Of a stretch of DNA of 55,934 nt, positions 3,474 through 46,655 are shown in pieces (the stretch's first letter is position 1; each line of letters starts with the position of its first letter). The DNA comes from Oscillospiraceae bacterium (lineage in GTDB: Bacteria > Bacillota > Clostridia > Oscillospirales > CAG-272): contig SVUB01000001.1 in NCBI GenBank assembly GCA_015063495.1, forward strand, positions 1-55,934, written 5' to 3'. The notes beneath the pieces are model-generated. The model searched no databases and had not been told where the DNA came from. It was given only the letters and a program-made list of their open reading frames with translations. A program made the position numbers and the translations under genes.

Positions 3474-5027
3474 TCAGCGATAGTAGTAATATTTTTTCGC
3501 CGATTCTTTTGCAATATTCCTCTCGCTGAAGGGATGCTTGCCGCTTCTGTCTATCTCGTATTCCTCGTGTCCCTTGCCTGCCAGAAGTATGATATCTCCC
3601 GTCAGCGCATTCTTAATAACGTAATCAATAGCCTCCGCGCGACTCTCTATCATAACCGCGTGCGCGCGCGTAAAATCAAAACCGACCATGATGTCGGATA
3701 TTATGTCTCGGGGAAGCTCGCTTCGGCTGTTGTCGGACGTGACCACAACGAAGTCGGCAAGCGATGATGCTATCTCGCCCATAACTGCACGCTTGCTTCT
3801 GTCTCTGTCGCCACCGCACCCGAAAAGAAGAACTATTCTCTGCCCGCTCCGTCTGAAATCACGGGCGGTAAGCAGGAGATTTTTAAGTGCGTCAGGGGTG
3901 TGAGCATAGTCTATAAAGACTGCAAAATCTGCTCCTGTACAGAGCTTTACTCTCTCAAACCGACCGTCGATTCCTCCCATATGTCTGAGTGCGTCCTGCA
4001 CAGTTCGGGAATCTATTCCCATTTCAAGTGCACAAGCCGCCGCCTCAAGTGTGTTTATTACGGTGAATCGCCCGGGTATAGGGCTTTTTATTTTGAAGAC
4101 CGAGCACACGGAACTGAGAAGATACTCAATGCCGTCAGCGCCGAGATGCGAAATGCTTGCGGCGGAGTAGTCAGCTCTTCTGCCGTCGTCACGGGTGCAA
4201 AGTCTTATGTTTTTGCATCCGCCTTTTTCCGCGGCATCCGCAATACCGTTTGCATATGCGTCGTCGCCGTTTATAATGGCGATATCGGCCATCTTAAAGA
4301 GCTTTTTCTTTGCCTCAAGGTAATTTTCCATCGTGACGTGAAAATCAAGATGGTCGGGAGTAAGATTGGTAAAGACCGCCGCCGCAAAATGAAGCGGAGC
4401 AAGCTTATCGAGCGCCAGTGCGTGGGAGGTAGCCTCAAGAAGTACAAGCTCAACGCCGTCTGCCTCCATCACCGAGAGGATATGGTAAAGCTCTTTTGGG
4501 TCGGGAGTGGTCATATTGGCGTTTTCGTCCTCGGAGCGGATAGATAGTCTTTTATCCCCCGAGTAGCAGACTACGGTTCCTATAAGTCCCGTTTTTATGA
4601 GCGCCGCACTAAAAATAGCACGGAGCATAAAGGTCACGCTTGTTTTCCCGTTAGTTCCCGTCACAGCGACGAGTTTCATGTTCTTTGACGGATGACCGTA
4701 CCATGCATTCCACACAAAGGAGAGTGCGTGTCGGGTATTATCCGTTAAGAGAAGGACAGGACTGTCTTTGCTCTCAAAGAGAGAGGTATCAATATCTGCC
4801 CCATTCTCGGCAAGTACTGCTACGGCACCGTTTTCCACGGCATCTTTTATAAATTTGTGTCCGTCGACCTTGGTTCCCTTTATGCAAACAAAGAGACTTC
4901 CCTTTTTTACGATTCGGGAATCCGAGGTTATATCGGTTATTTCAAGCTCGTCAAACATGTCGTTGCTTTGGGCATCTACACCGTGTTGTTTGACGGGTAT
5001 ATCTGAAATTAGTTCGATAAGTTTCAA
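3474..5027 (-). CDS. murE: UDP-N-acetylmuramoyl-L-alanyl-D-glutamate--2,6-diaminopimelate ligase MurE
   Basis: Mur ligase P-loop VTGTNGKTS, and a DNSRSE motif at the position of the DNPR DAP-specificity motif. Position in the dcw cluster supports the call. Confidence 0.9.
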   Translation of the reverse strand: MKLIELISDIPVKQHGVDAQSNDMFDELEITDITSDSRIVKKGSLFVCIKGTKVDGHKFIKDAVENGAVAVLAENGADIDTSLFESKDSPVLLLTDNTRHALSFVWNAWYGHPSKNMKLVAVTGTNGKTSVTFMLRAIFSAALIKTGLIGTVVCYSGDKRLSIRSEDENANMTTPDPKELYHILSVMEADGVELVLLEATSHALALDKLAPLHFAAAVFTNLTPDHLDFHVTMENYLEAKKKLFKMADIAIINGDDAYANGIADAAEKGGCKNIRLCTRDDGRRADYSAASISHLGADGIEYLLSSVCSVFKIKSPIPGRFTVINTLEAAACALEMGIDSRTVQDALRHMGGIDGRFERVKLCTGADFAVFIDYAHTPDALKNLLLTARDFRRSGQRIVLLFGCGGDRDRSKRAVMGEIASSLADFVVVTSDNSRSELPRDIISDIMVGFDFTRAHAVMIESRAEAIDYVIKNALTGDIILLAGKGHEEYEIDRSGKHPFSERNIAKESAKKYYYYR

Positions 5028-5136
5028 GTGTTTTCACCTCTAATTTTGATGGTTTTTGAATAACTATTTTCACTTCCATCTAATTTGAGGCTTTTTTGTG
5101 CTGATTTTCGGTAAAATCGGCTGTTTTTACGTTTTA

Positions 5137-7437
5137 TCAGTCGGTTCCGTCAAGATATCTGAACTCAACAGTTACGAGAGTTCCCTTCGGAACGACCTCA
5201 CCTGCGGCAGGTGACTGGGATACTACCACGGCTCCTGCGCCGGTTTCATAGTTTGTAGTTCCTGTAATGTTTATATTGAGCTTACTGTTTATAATCATAT
5301 GGTTTGCGATAGTTGCGGATTTACCCATAACGTCGGGAACTTTTACGTTGTCGCTGTTTTCAAGCTCACCTGCGTAAAGGTATACCTTTCCGTCCTTGCG
5401 GACTCCGCTACCGCCCGTAGGTGCCATTTTTACTATCTTATTTCCCTCTCCGACGACCTCATAGTCGATTCCGAGATAGCCCATACTCTGCTTTGCATCA
5501 GCCACGCTCCAACCAACGTAATTGGGGAGAGTTTTCGTAAGATTTTCGAGCTCTTTTTCAGTATATACCGCTTCTATTCCAAGATAAGGAAGAATAGAAG
5601 ACATAACGTTTGCAACGTAAGGAGCTGCAACGATACTTCCGTATACAGAGCCTTTATTCGGCTCATCGACCATTATAAGGACTGCAACCTGAGGGTCATC
5701 TGCGGGTGCGTATGCCACACACGAGCCAACTCTGAATGGAGTGCTTCCGTCGGGAAGCTTTTTATCCTTTTTCTCGGTCGTACCCGTCTTTGCAGCGATT
5801 CTGTATCCGGCAACATACGCATTTTTTGCACCGCCGTCGCCCGAAACGCCTTCTTCTAGTATCTGAGTGATAGTATCGCACACCTCGGTGCTTACCACTT
5901 GTCTTGTGCTTGAGCTATCGTTATAGGAGAATACTACATTACCTTCGGAATCGGTCATTTCCTTAACAAGATGAGGTGTTACGAGGTATCCTCCGTTCGC
6001 AACGGCAGCTATTGCACGTATCTGCTGAATTGGAGTAACAGTAAAGTTCTGACCAAACGCTGCGGTCGCAAGCTCGACCTGATTAAAATTCTTGACCTCG
6101 TGGAAAATAGAATTTCCTTCACCAGAGAGGTCAATATTTGTTTTTTCCATAAGCCCGAAGGCATTAAAATAATCGTAGAATTTAGCGGAGCCAAGTCTTA
6201 GTGCTATCGTCATAAGAACGGGGTTGCAGGACTGCTGAAGAGCTCTTGCAAAGGTCTCGGAGCCATGTCCCGTTGTCTTATGGCAGTGAATCGGTTTGCT
6301 GTATCCCGGAACGAAATATGCTCCGGTGCAGAAAAAGTTTTCCCCAACGGAGACAACCTTTTCTTCAAGGCACATTGCCGTTGTTATTACCTTAAAGGTA
6401 GAACCCGGCATGTAGGTGCTGGTTATTGCTTTATTTGACCAGGAGGTCTGAAGAAGTTTTACTTTTTCAGCATTGTACTCCTCGCTTCCCTCTTCAAGCT
6501 TCAGAGAGGCAAGCTGTTCAAGGAAGTATTCGTCAAGTGCCCAAGGATCGTTACAGTTGAAATCGGGGATAGTTGACATTCCAAGTATTCCACCGTTTTT
6601 TACATCCATAACTATTCCGCAGACTCTTTCGCTTGCACCGTTATCGGCAAGCGTTGCACGGAGCTGATTTTCAAGCTCGTACTGTATAAACATATCGAGA
6701 GTTGTGGTTATATTGTAGCCATCCTTTGCCTCGATATAGTTTTCATATTCGGTAGGCATTTCATTGCCGTAGGAATCTCTTGCGGTTATGTATATTCCGT
6801 TCGTTCCCGAAAGCTCTTTTTCATAGCTGTATTCAAGACCGTAAAGGCCATTATTTTCCGATCCTGTAAAACCCAGAACACTCGATGCAAGGCTGTCATA
6901 ACAGTAATAGCGCTTCGAGGTAGCCTCAAGGTGTATCTCATTATAAAGGTCGTTTTCTGCAATAAACTGTCTTACAAGCTGTGCCTTATCGTTTTCAACG
7001 TTCTTCGCTATCGTCTCGTCAAGTCTTCCGACCTTTTTGGACTTTTCTATTATAGAATTATAATCTGCATCTAAGATCTCGGAGAGATTATTCGCAATAA
7101 GGACGTCTATTCCGGGTCTGGGCTCCTTTATCACGTCTCCGTCAGAGTCCTTTGAGCCCTTCATGGTATTCTGAATATCCTTAGGAGAAATAAAAACACG
7201 GTATACCGTAACGTCAGTCGCAAGCAGTACACCGTTCGTATCATATATATCGCCTCTGTCGGCGGGTATGACTGATTCGGTGGTCATCTGCGAGATAACT
7301 TCCTTTTGGTATCTCTCGTAGTCCTTTGTCTGGAGAGCGAAAACTCTGAATGTCAGGTATATGAAAGCAAGTACTATGAAGCCAAGGATGAGGTAAGAAC
7401 GCCCGTAAAGATTCGTGCTTACCGACTTCTGCTTCAT
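5137..7437 (-). CDS. class B penicillin-binding protein (FtsI/PBP2B/SpoVD-type transpeptidase) with C-terminal PASTA repeats
   Basis: N-terminal TM anchor, a PBP dimer domain, the STFK active-site motif (PGSTFKV) and KTGT (AAKTGTT), plus two PASTA-like C-terminal repeats. Start taken at ATG 7437 (RBS GAGGGGGAAG). The ORF-track start at 7455 is a TTG. Confidence 0.9.
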   Translation of the reverse strand: MKQKSVSTNLYGRSYLILGFIVLAFIYLTFRVFALQTKDYERYQKEVISQMTTESVIPADRGDIYDTNGVLLATDVTVYRVFISPKDIQNTMKGSKDSDGDVIKEPRPGIDVLIANNLSEILDADYNSIIEKSKKVGRLDETIAKNVENDKAQLVRQFIAENDLYNEIHLEATSKRYYCYDSLASSVLGFTGSENNGLYGLEYSYEKELSGTNGIYITARDSYGNEMPTEYENYIEAKDGYNITTTLDMFIQYELENQLRATLADNGASERVCGIVMDVKNGGILGMSTIPDFNCNDPWALDEYFLEQLASLKLEEGSEEYNAEKVKLLQTSWSNKAITSTYMPGSTFKVITTAMCLEEKVVSVGENFFCTGAYFVPGYSKPIHCHKTTGHGSETFARALQQSCNPVLMTIALRLGSAKFYDYFNAFGLMEKTNIDLSGEGNSIFHEVKNFNQVELATAAFGQNFTVTPIQQIRAIAAVANGGYLVTPHLVKEMTDSEGNVVFSYNDSSSTRQVVSTEVCDTITQILEEGVSGDGGAKNAYVAGYRIAAKTGTTEKKDKKLPDGSTPFRVGSCVAYAPADDPQVAVLIMVDEPNKGSVYGSIVAAPYVANVMSSILPYLGIEAVYTEKELENLTKTLPNYVGWSVADAKQSMGYLGIDYEVVGEGNKIVKMAPTGGSGVRKDGKVYLYAGELENSDNVKVPDVMGKSATIANHMIINSKLNINITGTTNYETGAGAVVVSQSPAAGEVVPKGTLVTVEFRYLDGTD

Positions 7438-34459: not shown

Positions 34460-34535
34460 TGGAGCTACTAATCAGATTCGAACTGATGACCTCGTCATTA
34501 CCAATGACGTGCGCTACCTGCTGCGCCATAGTAGC
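34460..34535 (-). tRNA. tRNA-Thr (anticodon GGU), CCA encoded
   Basis: Hand-folded cloverleaf with a 7-bp acceptor GCTACTA/TAGTAGC, a 4-bp D-stem GCGC/GCGC and a 5-bp anticodon stem CGTCA/TGACG. The anticodon loop is TTGGTAA. The T-arm is ATCAG-TTCGAAT-CTGAT, followed by discriminator T and CCA. Confidence 0.9.
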
Positions 34536-34637: not shown

Positions 34638-34895
34638 GTAAACGCAATGACGGGAAGTAGTAGTCGTAAAATTTTGCATCCAGAGAGTGGGGAACGGTGG
34701 AAGCCCTGCGGCAAAAAGCGATGAAGTAGTCCCCGAGCGGTCTCCGTGAACGGAATTTTCACTTATTAGCGGCGAACGGGTTCTCCCGTTAAAGAGAAGC
34801 TGTATAAAAGTACAGATAAAGAGCGTGCCTCGGCACGAAATCAGGTGGTACCGCGCTTCTGCGTCCTGAAAAAGGATGCGGGGCGTTATTTTTTT
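34638..34895 (+). promoter_or_regulatory. T-box riboswitch leader (tRNA-Val-responsive) with terminator
   Basis: AGAGA box (34682-34686) and a specifier region GAA-GUA-G (GUA at 34727-34729, with GUC adjacent; both are Val codons). The T-box sequence is AAATCAGGTGGTACCGCG (GGTGGTACCGCG at 34844-34855). A terminator hairpin and T-run follow (34852-34895), directly upstream of valS. Confidence 0.9.
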
Positions 34896-45526: not shown

Positions 45527-45868
45527 TTAAGGGTCGCACCTGCGACACCCTATATATCCTTCATTGACAGCTTCATCTCGTGAACCGAAAAATTCCTTTT
45601 TATTCTCCTCATTCATATCATTGACCGAAGCACAGTCGGGATAATGGAATTTTTTTGACCTGATATTAAGAATGTAAGTAGGTGACTCGCACGGTGACGG
45701 CAGGGCATCGGACGGCTCATCAACTTTCAAGCTTGCAATTTCAGTTTTTGGAGTAACGTAAACATCTTCTAAGTCATTTGTATCAGCAGAAAAGGCCGAT
45801 GACACTGCAAAATAACAAGCAATAATGATTAGGGAATATTTCAGAACAAGAAAAAACGCTTTTTTCAT
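45527..45868 (-). CDS. small secreted protein with C-terminal Ada-type Zn-ribbon-like motif
   Basis: Start at ATG 45868 (RBS GGAGGAAGAA). Signal peptide MKKAFFLVLKYSLIIIACYFAVSSAFSA. The C-terminal KKFHYPDC...FFGSRDEAVNEGYIGCRRCDP follows the FH-x3-C...GY-x-C-x2-C-x-P pattern of the Ada metal-binding fold. The ORF-track extension to 45988 runs through a terminator hairpin and is rejected. Confidence 0.6.
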   Translation of the reverse strand: MKKAFFLVLKYSLIIIACYFAVSSAFSADTNDLEDVYVTPKTEIASLKVDEPSDALPSPCESPTYILNIRSKKFHYPDCASVNDMNEENKKEFFGSRDEAVNEGYIGCRRCDP

Positions 45869-45888
45869 TTCTTCCTCCAAAAATTCAT

Positions 45889-46044
45889 AAAAAAAGTGCG
45901 CCCCATTAAGGGACGCACGAAAAAGTGAATCCCCCATTGTTGCTACACAATCTCTACCTATCTGTGGGTATGAGTAAAAAGGAAACACCTTTTACCAAGG
46001 TTAGTTTCCCACAGATAGAAAATGATTATTTGATTGTGTAGCAG
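45889..46044 (-). promoter_or_regulatory. structured 5' leader with intrinsic terminator (attenuator/riboswitch-like), module A
   Basis: P1 pairs 46043-46032 with 45952-45941 (12 bp). P2 pairs 46018-46008 with 45968-45958 (11 bp). An apical AAAAGG/CCUUUU hairpin follows, then the terminator GUGCGUCCC-UUAAU-GGGGCGCAC plus U7 (45918-45889). There are only 20 nt between the U-run and the ATG at 45868, which is RBS-only spacing. Confidence 0.55.
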
Positions 46045-46048
46045 GTTT

Positions 46049-46077
46049 ATTGTACCATAAACACTGATAAATGTCAA
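46049..46077 (-). promoter_or_regulatory. consensus sigma-A promoter driving leader module A
   Basis: Minus strand: TTGACA (46077-46072), 17 nt, TGgTACAAT (-10 at 46054-46049). Confidence 0.65.
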
Positions 46078-46093
46078 TATTTCTTTATATAAT

Positions 46094-46222
46094 AAAAAAG
46101 TGCGCCCCATTAAGGGACGCACGAAAAAGTGAATCCCCTACATGTTGCTACACAAGCTCTTCCCATTTGTGGTGTGAGTAAAAGGAGAAAACACCTTTTG
46201 CATAGGTATTTTACCACAAAAT
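46094..46222 (-). ncRNA. candidate small RNA / second leader module B (partial duplicate of module A ending in the identical terminator)
   Basis: A 45-nt block identical to module A includes the terminator hairpin (46122-46100) plus U6. Upstream ~85 nt are homologous to module A with retained P2 pairing (46173-46166/46220-46213). A possible promoter TTGACT-17-TGgTAAAAT lies at 46236-46208. Confidence 0.4.
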
Positions 46223-46292
46223 TTATTTTTAGTCAATCTTAAGTTTTTTCTGATATGCAATTTTTATTAAAATGTAAATTTAGCAAAATCTA

Positions 46293-46321
46293 TTGCAATA
46301 ATTGCGAAAATCTGTTATAAT
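46293..46321 (+). promoter_or_regulatory. sigma-A promoter of SRP RNA
   Basis: TTGCAA (46293-46298), 17 nt, TATAAT (46316-46321). Confidence 0.6.
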
Positions 46322-46357
46322 ATTTTAGTATGAGTGCATAGTCACTTGCACAGTCAC

Positions 46358-46655
46358 AAGCTGTGAAATAAGGCCATACTAGCCGGGGATTTAGCGGAGC
46401 CCTGTACCTGAAATCCGCTACAGCAGGGGTGAATCCCTTTTTTGAGGGTCCCGGTGGTGCGATTGCACCGATCTCCTCTGTGTTGAGAAGCGGGTCTTGC
46501 GCGATCGGGAGCTGTGAACCATGTCAGGTGGGGAACCAAGCAGCATTAAGCAGTATCCCCGATGTGCCGCGAGGCAGCCTGCTTTGAGCAGAGGCATCGG
46601 AATGCGCGTATTTCCGAGATTCGATCTTAAGGTGTATGGTCTTATTTTGCAGCTT
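46358..46655 (+). ncRNA. ffs: signal recognition particle RNA, long (Bacillus-type, with Alu domain) form
   Basis: Domain IV core GTCAGGTGGGGAACCAAGCAGC is comparable to GUCAGGUCCGGAAGGAAGCAGC. The Alu-domain-like 5' part is GGGGATTTAGCGGAGCCCTGTACCTGAAATCCGCTACAGCAGGGGTGAATCCC. The termini pair (AAGCTGTGAAATAAGGCCATAC with GTATGGTCTTATTTTGCAGCTT). The position directly upstream of dnaX matches B. subtilis scr. The ends are approximate. Confidence 0.85.

Follow-up and report, generated by a model that had tools for sequence, protein, structure and literature searches.

Attenuators of the four-segment kind, such as the trp-type leaders, the PyrR-controlled pyr leader and the T-box, share a promoter-proximal leader, a terminator placed right before an open reading frame (ORF) and a set of three mutually exclusive helices. 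The preQ1-II/III, SAM-II/V and ZTP riboswitches carry in their expression platforms a pseudoknot that joins a loop to the 3' tail. Here we describe an RNA element with likeness to both, which lies on the minus strand, at positions 45889-46236, of a stretch of DNA of 55,934 bp (the window) that is an entire contig of an Oscillospiraceae/Ruminococcaceae metagenome-assembled genome (MAG). The element consists of two tandem modules, A and B, upstream of a gene for a protein of 113 amino acids (aa). Module A is a member of a previously uncatalogued and widespread family of structured leader RNAs found in gut Clostridia and mainly in their phages. Judged from sequence comparison, it probably represents a new RNA family of cis-acting transcription-attenuation leaders in gut Clostridia and temperate phages.

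Module A and the homologues of the leader

In the window, promoter A (46077-46049, on the minus strand like all features of the two modules; TTGACA-17-TGgTACAAT) matches the consensus at 11 of 12 positions and includes the TG of an extended -10 element, with a predicted transcription start at about 46043-46041. The first helix, P1, joins the 5' arm UGCUACACAAUC (46043-46032) to the 3' arm GAUUGUGUAGCA (45952-45941) with 12 of 12 positions paired, and the 3' arm runs on into a conserved linker, ACAAU (arm and linker together 45936-45952). The core of the second helix, P2, joins CUAUCUGUGGG (46018-46008) to CCCACAGAUAG (45968-45958), and both inverted repeats, of 12 bp and 11 bp, are perfect in this copy. 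The apical loop holds segment 'a' AAAAGGUGUUUCCUUUUU (45976-45993; attenuator segment 1), directly preceded by an invariant UGGU, for which there are two options, a local apical hairpin or pairing with segment X. Segment X GGGGGAUUCACUUUUU (45920-45935; attenuator segment 2) has in turn two candidate partners, 'a' and the 5' arm of the terminator. Terminator A, which comprises segments 3 and 4, reads GUGCGUCCC-UUAAU-GGGGCGCAC followed by U7 (45889-45918), and its hairpin (45918-45896) has nine pairs, seven of them G-C, before a run of T6-7. The arms of P1 and P2 and the terminator hairpin are backed by covariation over the family, and P1 also by conservation. The gene, recognised from its sequence and a domain match, follows with a ribosome-binding site (RBS), GGAGG (45878-45874), and an ATG at 45868 (RBS and ORF together 45527-45878); the 27 nt from terminator A to the ATG hold the RBS only, with no promoter-like site. 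The predicted fold reaches -59.9 kcal/mol for module A (z = -8.2) and -35.8 kcal/mol for module B (z = -3.95), and the plus strand of the region is predicted to fold more weakly. Given more than 100 homologues of the module elsewhere, the two modules are far beyond chance.

The sequence features listed in an earlier, sequence-only reading of the window were all found at their coordinates on the minus strand, and its remark that it could match the fold to no riboswitch or leader class agrees with a check against Rfam 15, in which no family was assigned to the region. At gathering scores, only SRP RNA (the signal recognition particle RNA), a T-box and tRNA were matched, all elsewhere in the window; at E <= 10, the matches in the module region were driven by the terminators and reached at most 22 bits, against cut-offs of 41-99. 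Four phage loci bearing the RNA yielded only a tRNA in the same search.

For the comparison of synteny, 80 dnaX loci were fetched from GTDB genomes. In the window, the element lies between divergent genes, the minus-strand 113-aa ORF on one side and, on the other, the plus-strand SRP RNA (46374-46639) followed by dnaX. SRP RNA adjoins dnaX in 12 of the 12 dnaX loci checked, and upstream of it both the leader and the small gene are absent from the closest relatives (dnaX identity 65-76%). A homologue was found by permissive BLAST at a different genomic site in a Eubacteriales MAG with 53% dnaX identity (locus L011), where the leader is placed behind an addA-like gene with its terminator and immediately before the gene for a 492-aa leucine-rich-repeat (LRR) lipoprotein. 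Between L011 and the window, P1 is retained through compensatory changes, P2 is wholly different in sequence yet complementary, and the terminator stem covaries with its U.G pair retained.

A covariance model built from three sequences (R1), which scores L011 at 153 bits, was used together with two sequence patterns, the first made of the blocks conserved between the two species and the second being TGGTAAAA...TTGTGTNGCANCA. The first pattern with R1 gave seven copies in IMG/VR viral contigs; for the second, at least 120 matches were listed, and R1 confirmed 87 and 23 further loci at 53-114 bits. The total comes to at least 117 copies in IMG/VR contigs of gut phages and prophages (R1 53-114 bits), with about 80 distinct sequences, and two super-lineages, with at least 13 sub-lineages, can be told apart among the homologues. 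R1 scores on the opposite strand do not exceed 23 bits. Moreover, the U.G pair of the terminator is retained in 60 of 62 distinct homologues, in line with the minus-strand assignment first made from that pair in the window.

Thirteen other newly fetched loci are without an R1 match, and those of them fetched with the second pattern look like chance matches to that pattern. Several loci also have a weak R1 match of 15-23 bits some 0.2-1 kb upstream of their true leader (L084 8171-8328, L091 1419-1571, L088 9767-9914, L085 1519-1667 and L092 10263-10411), and in the L084 group these matches overlap a HAD-hydrolase gene at its start; either chance or a degenerate second copy may lie behind them. 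A BLAST search of GenBank phages and plasmids with the RNA gave no real match, and viral scans with the window-exact terminator block or a degenerate terminator-stem pattern were both empty. Two further attempts were set aside: the first metagenome pattern scan gave one match, inside a coding region and taken as chance, and a homology search with the L011 LRR lipoprotein returned distant, repeat-driven matches that were uninformative for context.

No account of this motif or its switch was found in the literature. Large automated catalogues of uncharacterised structured-RNA candidates were compiled from IMG/VR and human microbiomes (PMC10690425, PMC8040213), and the candidates catalogued from IMG/VR share their data source, the gut phages of that database, with the family described here. 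In the accessible parts of the text of these two papers the motif was not found, and neither the motif nor the switch is described; its core sequence is unmatched in the 200 searchable files among the 408 supplements of PMC8040213, and an unnamed entry for this RNA in one of the two catalogues is possible.

The members of the family share one order of parts: promoter, P1 5' arm, internal loop, P2, apical domain, the 3' arms of P2 and P1, linker, X and terminator. Every member has a TGnTAnnnT extended -10 promoter that ends about 7-9 nt before P1, and P1 begins near +1 with the consensus 5' GC.ACA.AA and 3' UUGUGU.GC. An asymmetric, A/U-rich internal loop forms the P1-P2 junction, and the apical domain contains the invariant UGGUAAAA (strand 'a'), which is conserved across all lineages. 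The conserved unpaired nucleotides include UGGUAAAA, AUA in J1/2 and the linker between the P1 3' arm and X, with the consensus A.CAAU. X itself is purine-rich and terminates in a U-run, after which come the terminator 5' arm (t5), loop, terminator 3' arm (t3), U-tract, RBS and start codon. In 85 of 87 evaluable copies, a co-oriented ORF starts at most 65 nt past the U-tract, usually 5-37 nt, with no promoter between. The order of promoter, leader, terminator, RBS and ORF thus recurs in nearly every homologue with enough downstream sequence, and the earlier proposal that module A is an attenuator-type cis leader gains weight from it.

Exclusive pairings and the proposed switch

The R1 structure comprises P1, part of P2 and the terminator. 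In its alignment, 96.2% of cells are paired, double changes occur at 14 pairs, and covariation scores 0.316, where controls with slid partners reach 0.059 at most; as with R2 below, the alignment had been fitted to the structure under test. Covariation is present at all six modelled pairs of P2, and 6 of the 12 pairs of P1 are invariant. Unexpectedly, RNAalifold joined the apical strand to the stretch directly 5' of the terminator, which is the strongest alternative pairing and had been missed in the sequence-only reading. Segment 'a' is complementary to X and its U-run over 14-18 bp in every lineage, for example AAAAAGUGUUUUCUCUC with GAGGGUUGACACUUUUU, AAAAAUGCAGGCUC with GAGCCGUGUUUUU, AAAAAUGUACGUGCUC with GGGGCCGUGCGUUUUU and, in the window, AAAAGGUG..UCC with GGGA..CACUUUU. 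RNAalifold and RNAfold recover this pairing independently wherever it is not pseudoknotted. In the alignment to a second covariance model (R2), whose structure is a:X with the terminator, 94.5% of cells are paired, double changes are seen at 6 of the 10 pairs of the first a:X helix and at 5 of the 5 pairs of the second, and covariation scores 0.265, where slid-partner controls reach 0.110 at most.

The pairings were also compared by an alignment-free swap test on mean duplex energies in 13 lineages, with 20,000 permutations. Cognate and non-cognate energies were -10.65 vs -7.08 kcal/mol for a:X and -15.8 vs -10.6 kcal/mol for t5:t3, and in both cases none of the 20,000 permutations was as low. 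For X:t5 they were -8.75 vs -6.39 kcal/mol (P = 3e-4), and for a composition control, 'a' with reversed X, -6.2 vs -5.0 kcal/mol (P = 0.006). X:t5 was judged by its per-lineage energies and this test; a single column-wise count was abandoned because the register differs by 2 nt between the super-lineages. The anti-terminator suggested earlier for the window is supported across the family: each lineage has an X that can pair with the 5' arm of its terminator and that changes along with this arm. The t5 arm moreover resembles 'a' inside each element (P = 0.03). Across lineages, the energies range from -12 to -19 kcal/mol for a:X, -12 to -18 for the terminator, -1 to -14 for X:t5 and -1 to -7 for the local apical hairpin, and a:X with the terminator would by energy be the ground state. 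Overall, the comparison of lineages shows that three helices predicted to exclude one another (a:X, X:t5 and t5:t3) have been maintained; they include the terminator 5' arm, a:X being strong and X:t5 variable, with moderate statistics.

On this basis, a mechanism can be proposed. Host RNA polymerase would start at the extended -10 promoter, and the first ~100 nt would fold into a long hairpin with the conserved P1, the asymmetric internal loop, the variable P2 and the apical domain. The segments would then compete, a:X against the anti-terminator X:t5 and the latter against the intrinsic terminator t5:t3. Where a:X forms, the terminator could form and an RNA of ~155 nt would be released; where 'a' is withheld, X:t5 would form and the polymerase would read into the RBS and the ORF beginning 5-37 nt on. 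A putative effector acting on P1, P2 and the apical domain would set the choice. We infer that whether a:X forms along with the terminator, or X:t5 forms instead, governs read-through, and that P1, P2 and the apical domain constitute the sensor.

The X tail begins 5-6 nt past the base of the ~25-bp P1-P2 stack, and being so close to that base, a:X would call for either a sharp bend at the asymmetric loop or steric competition with the closed hairpin. A kink-turn at the P1/P2 junction was rejected by eye, as the bulged strand is without GA. A U.A-U triple helix of the A-run with two U-runs is unlikely, given that both U-runs would be antiparallel to the A-run.

Cargo genes, phage context and competing explanations

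The genes that follow the leader (the cargo) belong to at least eight unrelated families, mostly of envelope proteins. There are 44 copies before ~190-aa membrane-anchored PASTA-domain proteins, 27 before DUF4839 lipoproteins (phrog_29396), six before ~355-aa proteins and four before 172-aa proteins without assigned function, and single copies before a membrane protein (L161), the LRR lipoprotein of L011, a secreted non-specific nuclease that has an Ada-like Zn domain at its C-terminus (L091) and the 113-aa protein of the window; the cargo of the L084 group is a fusion with an extracytoplasmic function (ECF) sigma factor. A PADLOC search of the cargo proteins gave nothing significant. The 113-aa protein has an N-terminal segment that looks by eye like a signal peptide and a C-terminal Ada-like Zn-ribbon, which matches Ada_Zn_binding at 21 bits, below the cut-off of 23. 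Over its last 50 aa it shares 54% identity with the C-terminal domain of the L091 nuclease. That is the only recurrence of Ada-Zn among the cargo; the answer to the earlier question whether homologues always come before Ada-Zn-ribbon proteins is no. A protein look-up gave no exact record for the 113-aa protein, and a homology search returned a single distant relative, on a contig of 691 nt with unrelated upstream sequence, so that it appears to be almost an orphan. At L091, a second G+C-rich hairpin with a U-run (GCCCGGCUUCGAUAAGUCGGGC, ~1820-1860) lies between the leader terminator and the nuclease gene, and there may be two terminators in series.

Phage or prophage contigs account for 117 of 120 copies. 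True phages make up the main carriers, and in them NrdD/NrdG, a MazG-like gene, ThyX and a region of iteron-like repeats lie upstream of the leader, and an exonuclease gene and the gene for a 906-918-aa protein lie downstream. The DFDGD motif and a match to phrog_4291 ('RNA-dependent RNA polymerase', 1369 bits) identify this protein as a YonO-like single-subunit RNA polymerase; its gene is preceded by the phrog_3953 exonuclease gene (L101 3124-5844; L099 7034-9790). The stretch upstream of the leader promoter in L101 (~700-1060) is non-coding over ~300-400 nt and is filled with the repeats AAAAGTGGGC, GCCCACTTTT and AAAGCCCGGTTTTG, which run in either direction; it resembles a set of iterons or operators, and its role could be that of an origin or partition site. 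The cargo gene has its own terminator, as seen in L101, and a gap of ~440 nt lies between it and the next gene; the unit of promoter, leader, gene and terminator can therefore be viewed as a self-contained 'moron' cassette. No leader lies upstream of DUF4839 homologues at 53-58% identity, so that the RNA travels with the cassette position and not with one gene family. The cluster of DUF4839 cargo (P0123, 94% identical to L101 1353-2123) has 4,792 member sequences in public assemblies, and the group of carrier phages must therefore be very common. An integrase gene is nearby in some contigs. In L085, a tRNA-Pro gene (4965-5041, minus strand) adjoins a tyrosine integrase gene (5315-6361, minus strand) at a prophage/host junction, which places the leader and the sigma gene of that 'viral' contig in the host flank.

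The chromosomal copies without phage context (the window and L011, together with the host flank of L085) suggest an effector that is host-encoded or universal. It may be proposed, tentatively and with rather less confidence than attenuation itself, that the family is an orphan class of riboswitch or riboregulator through which phages tie interchangeable envelope 'moron' genes, and bacteria their own secreted proteins or ECF sigma factors, to a host signal. The conserved P1/apical domain would then respond to an effector from the host, be it a small molecule or a conserved host factor and possibly one that reports envelope or growth state, and so pick a:X or the anti-terminator, and the phage unit of promoter, leader, variable envelope gene and terminator would operate as the self-contained cassette described above.

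Several observations weigh against the attenuation model. The functions of the cargo converge on no single metabolite, the cell envelope being their sole common theme, and metabolite riboswitches do not typically have a helix with 6 of 12 pairs invariant, as P1 does. The support for X:t5 is moderate and not strong, because the composition control was also weakly significant, and some lineages have only a weak X:t5 (L213, -1.3 kcal/mol; L091, -3.5 kcal/mol). Fitting the alignments to the tested structures tells in the same direction, and the predicted geometry of the a:X pseudoknot demands a sharp bend between P1 and P2. Further, no ORF follows the leader in L094, where the neighbouring gene, at 26 nt, is convergent, and in the L084 group the gap from terminator to ORF is ~115-130 nt. 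In a member of that group (L085 2690-2790), the spacer before the ECF-sigma fusion consists of A/T-rich direct repeats resembling GAAAAAAT.

Some of these observations would suit a stand-alone small RNA (sRNA) gene, whose terminated transcript of ~155-180 nt would act in trans or bind a protein, the a:X pseudoknot belonging to its stable fold and read-through being incidental; in a variant, the RNA would be leader and sRNA at once. Promoter and terminator are both strong, as in an independent transcription unit, a:X with the terminator is thermodynamically favoured, P1 and UGGUAAAA are conserved in sequence in all lineages, the L094 copy is an orphan with its convergent gene 26 nt off, and module B retains promoter, a:X and terminator without an ORF. 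However, the co-oriented ORF at most 65 nt on in 85 of 87 copies leaves no room for a promoter, and the complementarity of X to t5, which changes lineage by lineage in both together, would be superfluous for a pure sRNA. No complementarity to a target was identified, although no search aimed at targets was made. Taken together, the sRNA gene is a less likely account of the family than an attenuator.

Module B contains an exact copy of a 45-nt block of module A (45890-45934 and 46094-46138), repeated with a period of 204-206 nt and occurring nowhere else in the 55,934-bp window; the flanks of the block are 77-87% identical between the modules. Aligned as 45890-45950 against 46094-46155, modules A and B are identical over the 3'-most 45-57 nt and ~75-87% identical over the remainder, which could reflect gene conversion or selection on the a:X/terminator platform. 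Promoter B (46236-46208; TTGACT-17-TGgTAAAAT) matches the consensus at 10 of 12 positions, with TG present. Its -10 TGGTAAAAT aligns with GUGGGAAACU of module A, at the 5' end of P2 and L1, and the promoter therefore arose inside the duplicated leader. A remnant of the P2 5' arm, UUUGUGG (46214-46220), pairs with 46166-46172 and overlaps the spacer and extended -10 of promoter B; here the compensatory change described earlier is indeed present, 46219/46167 being U:A in module B and C:G in module A. By covariance-model alignment, the P1 5' arm is missing, so that the P1 3' arm CUUGUGUAGCA (46146-46156) has no 5' partner, and AUGC replaces the family-invariant UGGU. What is retained is segment 'a' AAAAGGUGUUUUCUCCUUUU (46180-46199), segment X AGGGGAUUCACUUUUU (46124-46139; placed by sequence comparison and duplex energy), with which 'a' forms a predicted duplex of -13.8 kcal/mol, and terminator B (46094-46122), with its hairpin at 46122-46100 of nine pairs, seven G-C, and a run of T6-7. 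The module scores 82.6 bits with R2, and its minimum-free-energy fold is a:X with the terminator.

Two strong copies at one locus occur only in the window among the loci found, and the tandem arrangement is therefore specific to this genome. With no other locus doubled, and with only a:X and the terminator kept, the idea of a second tandem sensor is not sustained. By its alignment, module B is a window-specific, 5'-truncated duplicate of the leader, which would have lost the 5' sensor half, gained its own promoter and come to fold straight into a:X with the terminator. The folding predictions make it most likely that it produces a terminated RNA of ~108 nt or only insulates promoter A; the short RNA and the insulation could both be its contribution, and, as suggested earlier, it might act in trans on P1 of leader A. 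The gene for the large SRP RNA has a promoter-like site (46293-46321, plus strand; TTGCAA-17-TATAAT with TG) that precedes the Rfam match by ~50 nt and points away from module B; the duplicated unit, decayed at its upstream end, reaches with that end into this promoter region.

Given the phage context, the leader could also be imagined as a timing device akin to lambda PR'-tR'/Q or HK022 put, in which an anti-terminator encoded by the phage, or the RNA itself, would render the polymerase terminator-resistant and so switch the cargo and the genes downstream on in one phase of infection only. This is quite unlikely, even though 117 of the 120 copies are in phage or prophage contigs, the site is fixed after NrdD/NrdG, ThyX and iterons and before the genes for the exonuclease and the YonO-like RNA polymerase, and the sequence conservation of P1 fits a recognition site for a protein or polymerase. 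Against it stand the chromosomal, non-phage copies (the window and L011) and the lineage-specific complementarity of X and t5, which indicates local attenuation. The cargo's own strong terminator and the ~440-nt gap, moreover, mean that a processive mechanism would serve a single gene.

Attenuation by a ribosome on a leader peptide is very improbable. A Shine-Dalgarno (SD)-like GGAG or GAGG in X with an AUG, GUG or UUG would have to start translation over t5 and so block the terminator, with a:X masking the RBS. Many X segments do carry GGAG-like purines, a start-like triplet and then UUU UUC or UUU UCG, but only 0-2 nt separate the SD-like element from the triplet, and several variants of the main family, such as GAGGGUAGCAC and GAGAGCGGCAC, have no start triplet there. 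The first base of the triplet varies together with its partner in 'a', and conservation of a peptide is inseparable from the constraints of RNA pairing; a leader peptide thus seems unlikely from the sequences compared. Finally, neither an element acting at the DNA level, such as a pair of operators, an attachment site or a hairpin at an origin, nor a functionless strain-specific duplication can readily be entertained: the perfect inverted repeats of the window copy, the iteron-like repeats near the leader in phages and the integrase nearby in some contigs would fit the former, but the covariation is strand-specific, including G.U and the terminator U.G in 60 of 62 sequences, the reverse-strand model scores stay at or below 23 bits and P2 and a:X diverge in sequence between lineages with pairing retained, and the latter is excluded by more than 100 homologues.

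If the attenuation model holds, the family would be a regulatory RNA that is common, and previously uncharacterised, in the gut virome of humans and animals, with at least 117 copies found, and it would show how prophages regulate envelope genes of the lysogenic-conversion or superinfection type. The sharing of the leader between phages and chromosomes would present a case of regulatory-module exchange. Further, the four-segment switch would be testable by mutation, the sensor could be used for finding the ligand or protein, and the cassette could serve as a portable promoter-switch for Clostridia.

Comparison with known systems

The likeness to the preQ1-II/III, SAM-II/V and ZTP riboswitches lies in a hairpin loop that pairs with a downstream tail in the control decision and in helices formed of A-runs and U-runs. 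This RNA differs in being much larger, in the sequence conservation of P1 and in its association with envelope and 'moron' genes in place of a metabolic pathway, and the Rfam models of these riboswitches gave no match to the module region or the four phage loci. Assignment to a metabolite riboswitch with a coherent regulon was rejected, as the cargo ranges over PASTA, DUF4839, LRR, nuclease, Ada-Zn and ECF sigma fusion proteins.

With the lambda PR'-tR' '6S'/Q system and HK022 put, the leader shares a strong phage promoter and a short terminated RNA before genes reached by read-through. In the present case, the alternative pairing is local and lineage-specific, the single cargo gene has its own terminator, and there are chromosomal copies too; none of the lambda Q or HK022 put features was seen, although no test aimed at them was made. 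ANTAR sites are tandem hairpins with AxxGxx hexaloops, and the ribonucleic antiterminator (RAT) is an element of ~29 nt of the LicT/SacY type that overlaps a terminator. Both were rejected on comparison with the consensus, with no dedicated model run: X:t5 is a single hairpin with a U-rich loop of 5-12 nt (UUUUUC...) and no A1/G4 pattern.

The closest resemblance is to the four-segment attenuators, whose exclusive helices would here be a:X as anti-anti-terminator, X:t5 as anti-terminator and t5:t3 as terminator. No leader peptide is evident in this RNA, and it contains no T-box or specifier sequence. The T-box model (RF00230) matches the window at 34638-34871 and gives nothing in 45700-46400, even at E <= 10; that T-box leader (plus strand, 118 bits) adjoins a divergent tRNA gene (34463-34535, minus strand) and is unrelated to the leader. 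Segment 1 of this RNA lies in the apical loop of a ~25-bp hairpin, and the anti-anti-terminator is therefore a pseudoknot, unlike that of the four-segment attenuators. Overall, we rate the leader as a new family that would work like a classical attenuator with terminator, anti-terminator and anti-anti-terminator, its novelty being the placement of segment 1 in the loop of a large hairpin.

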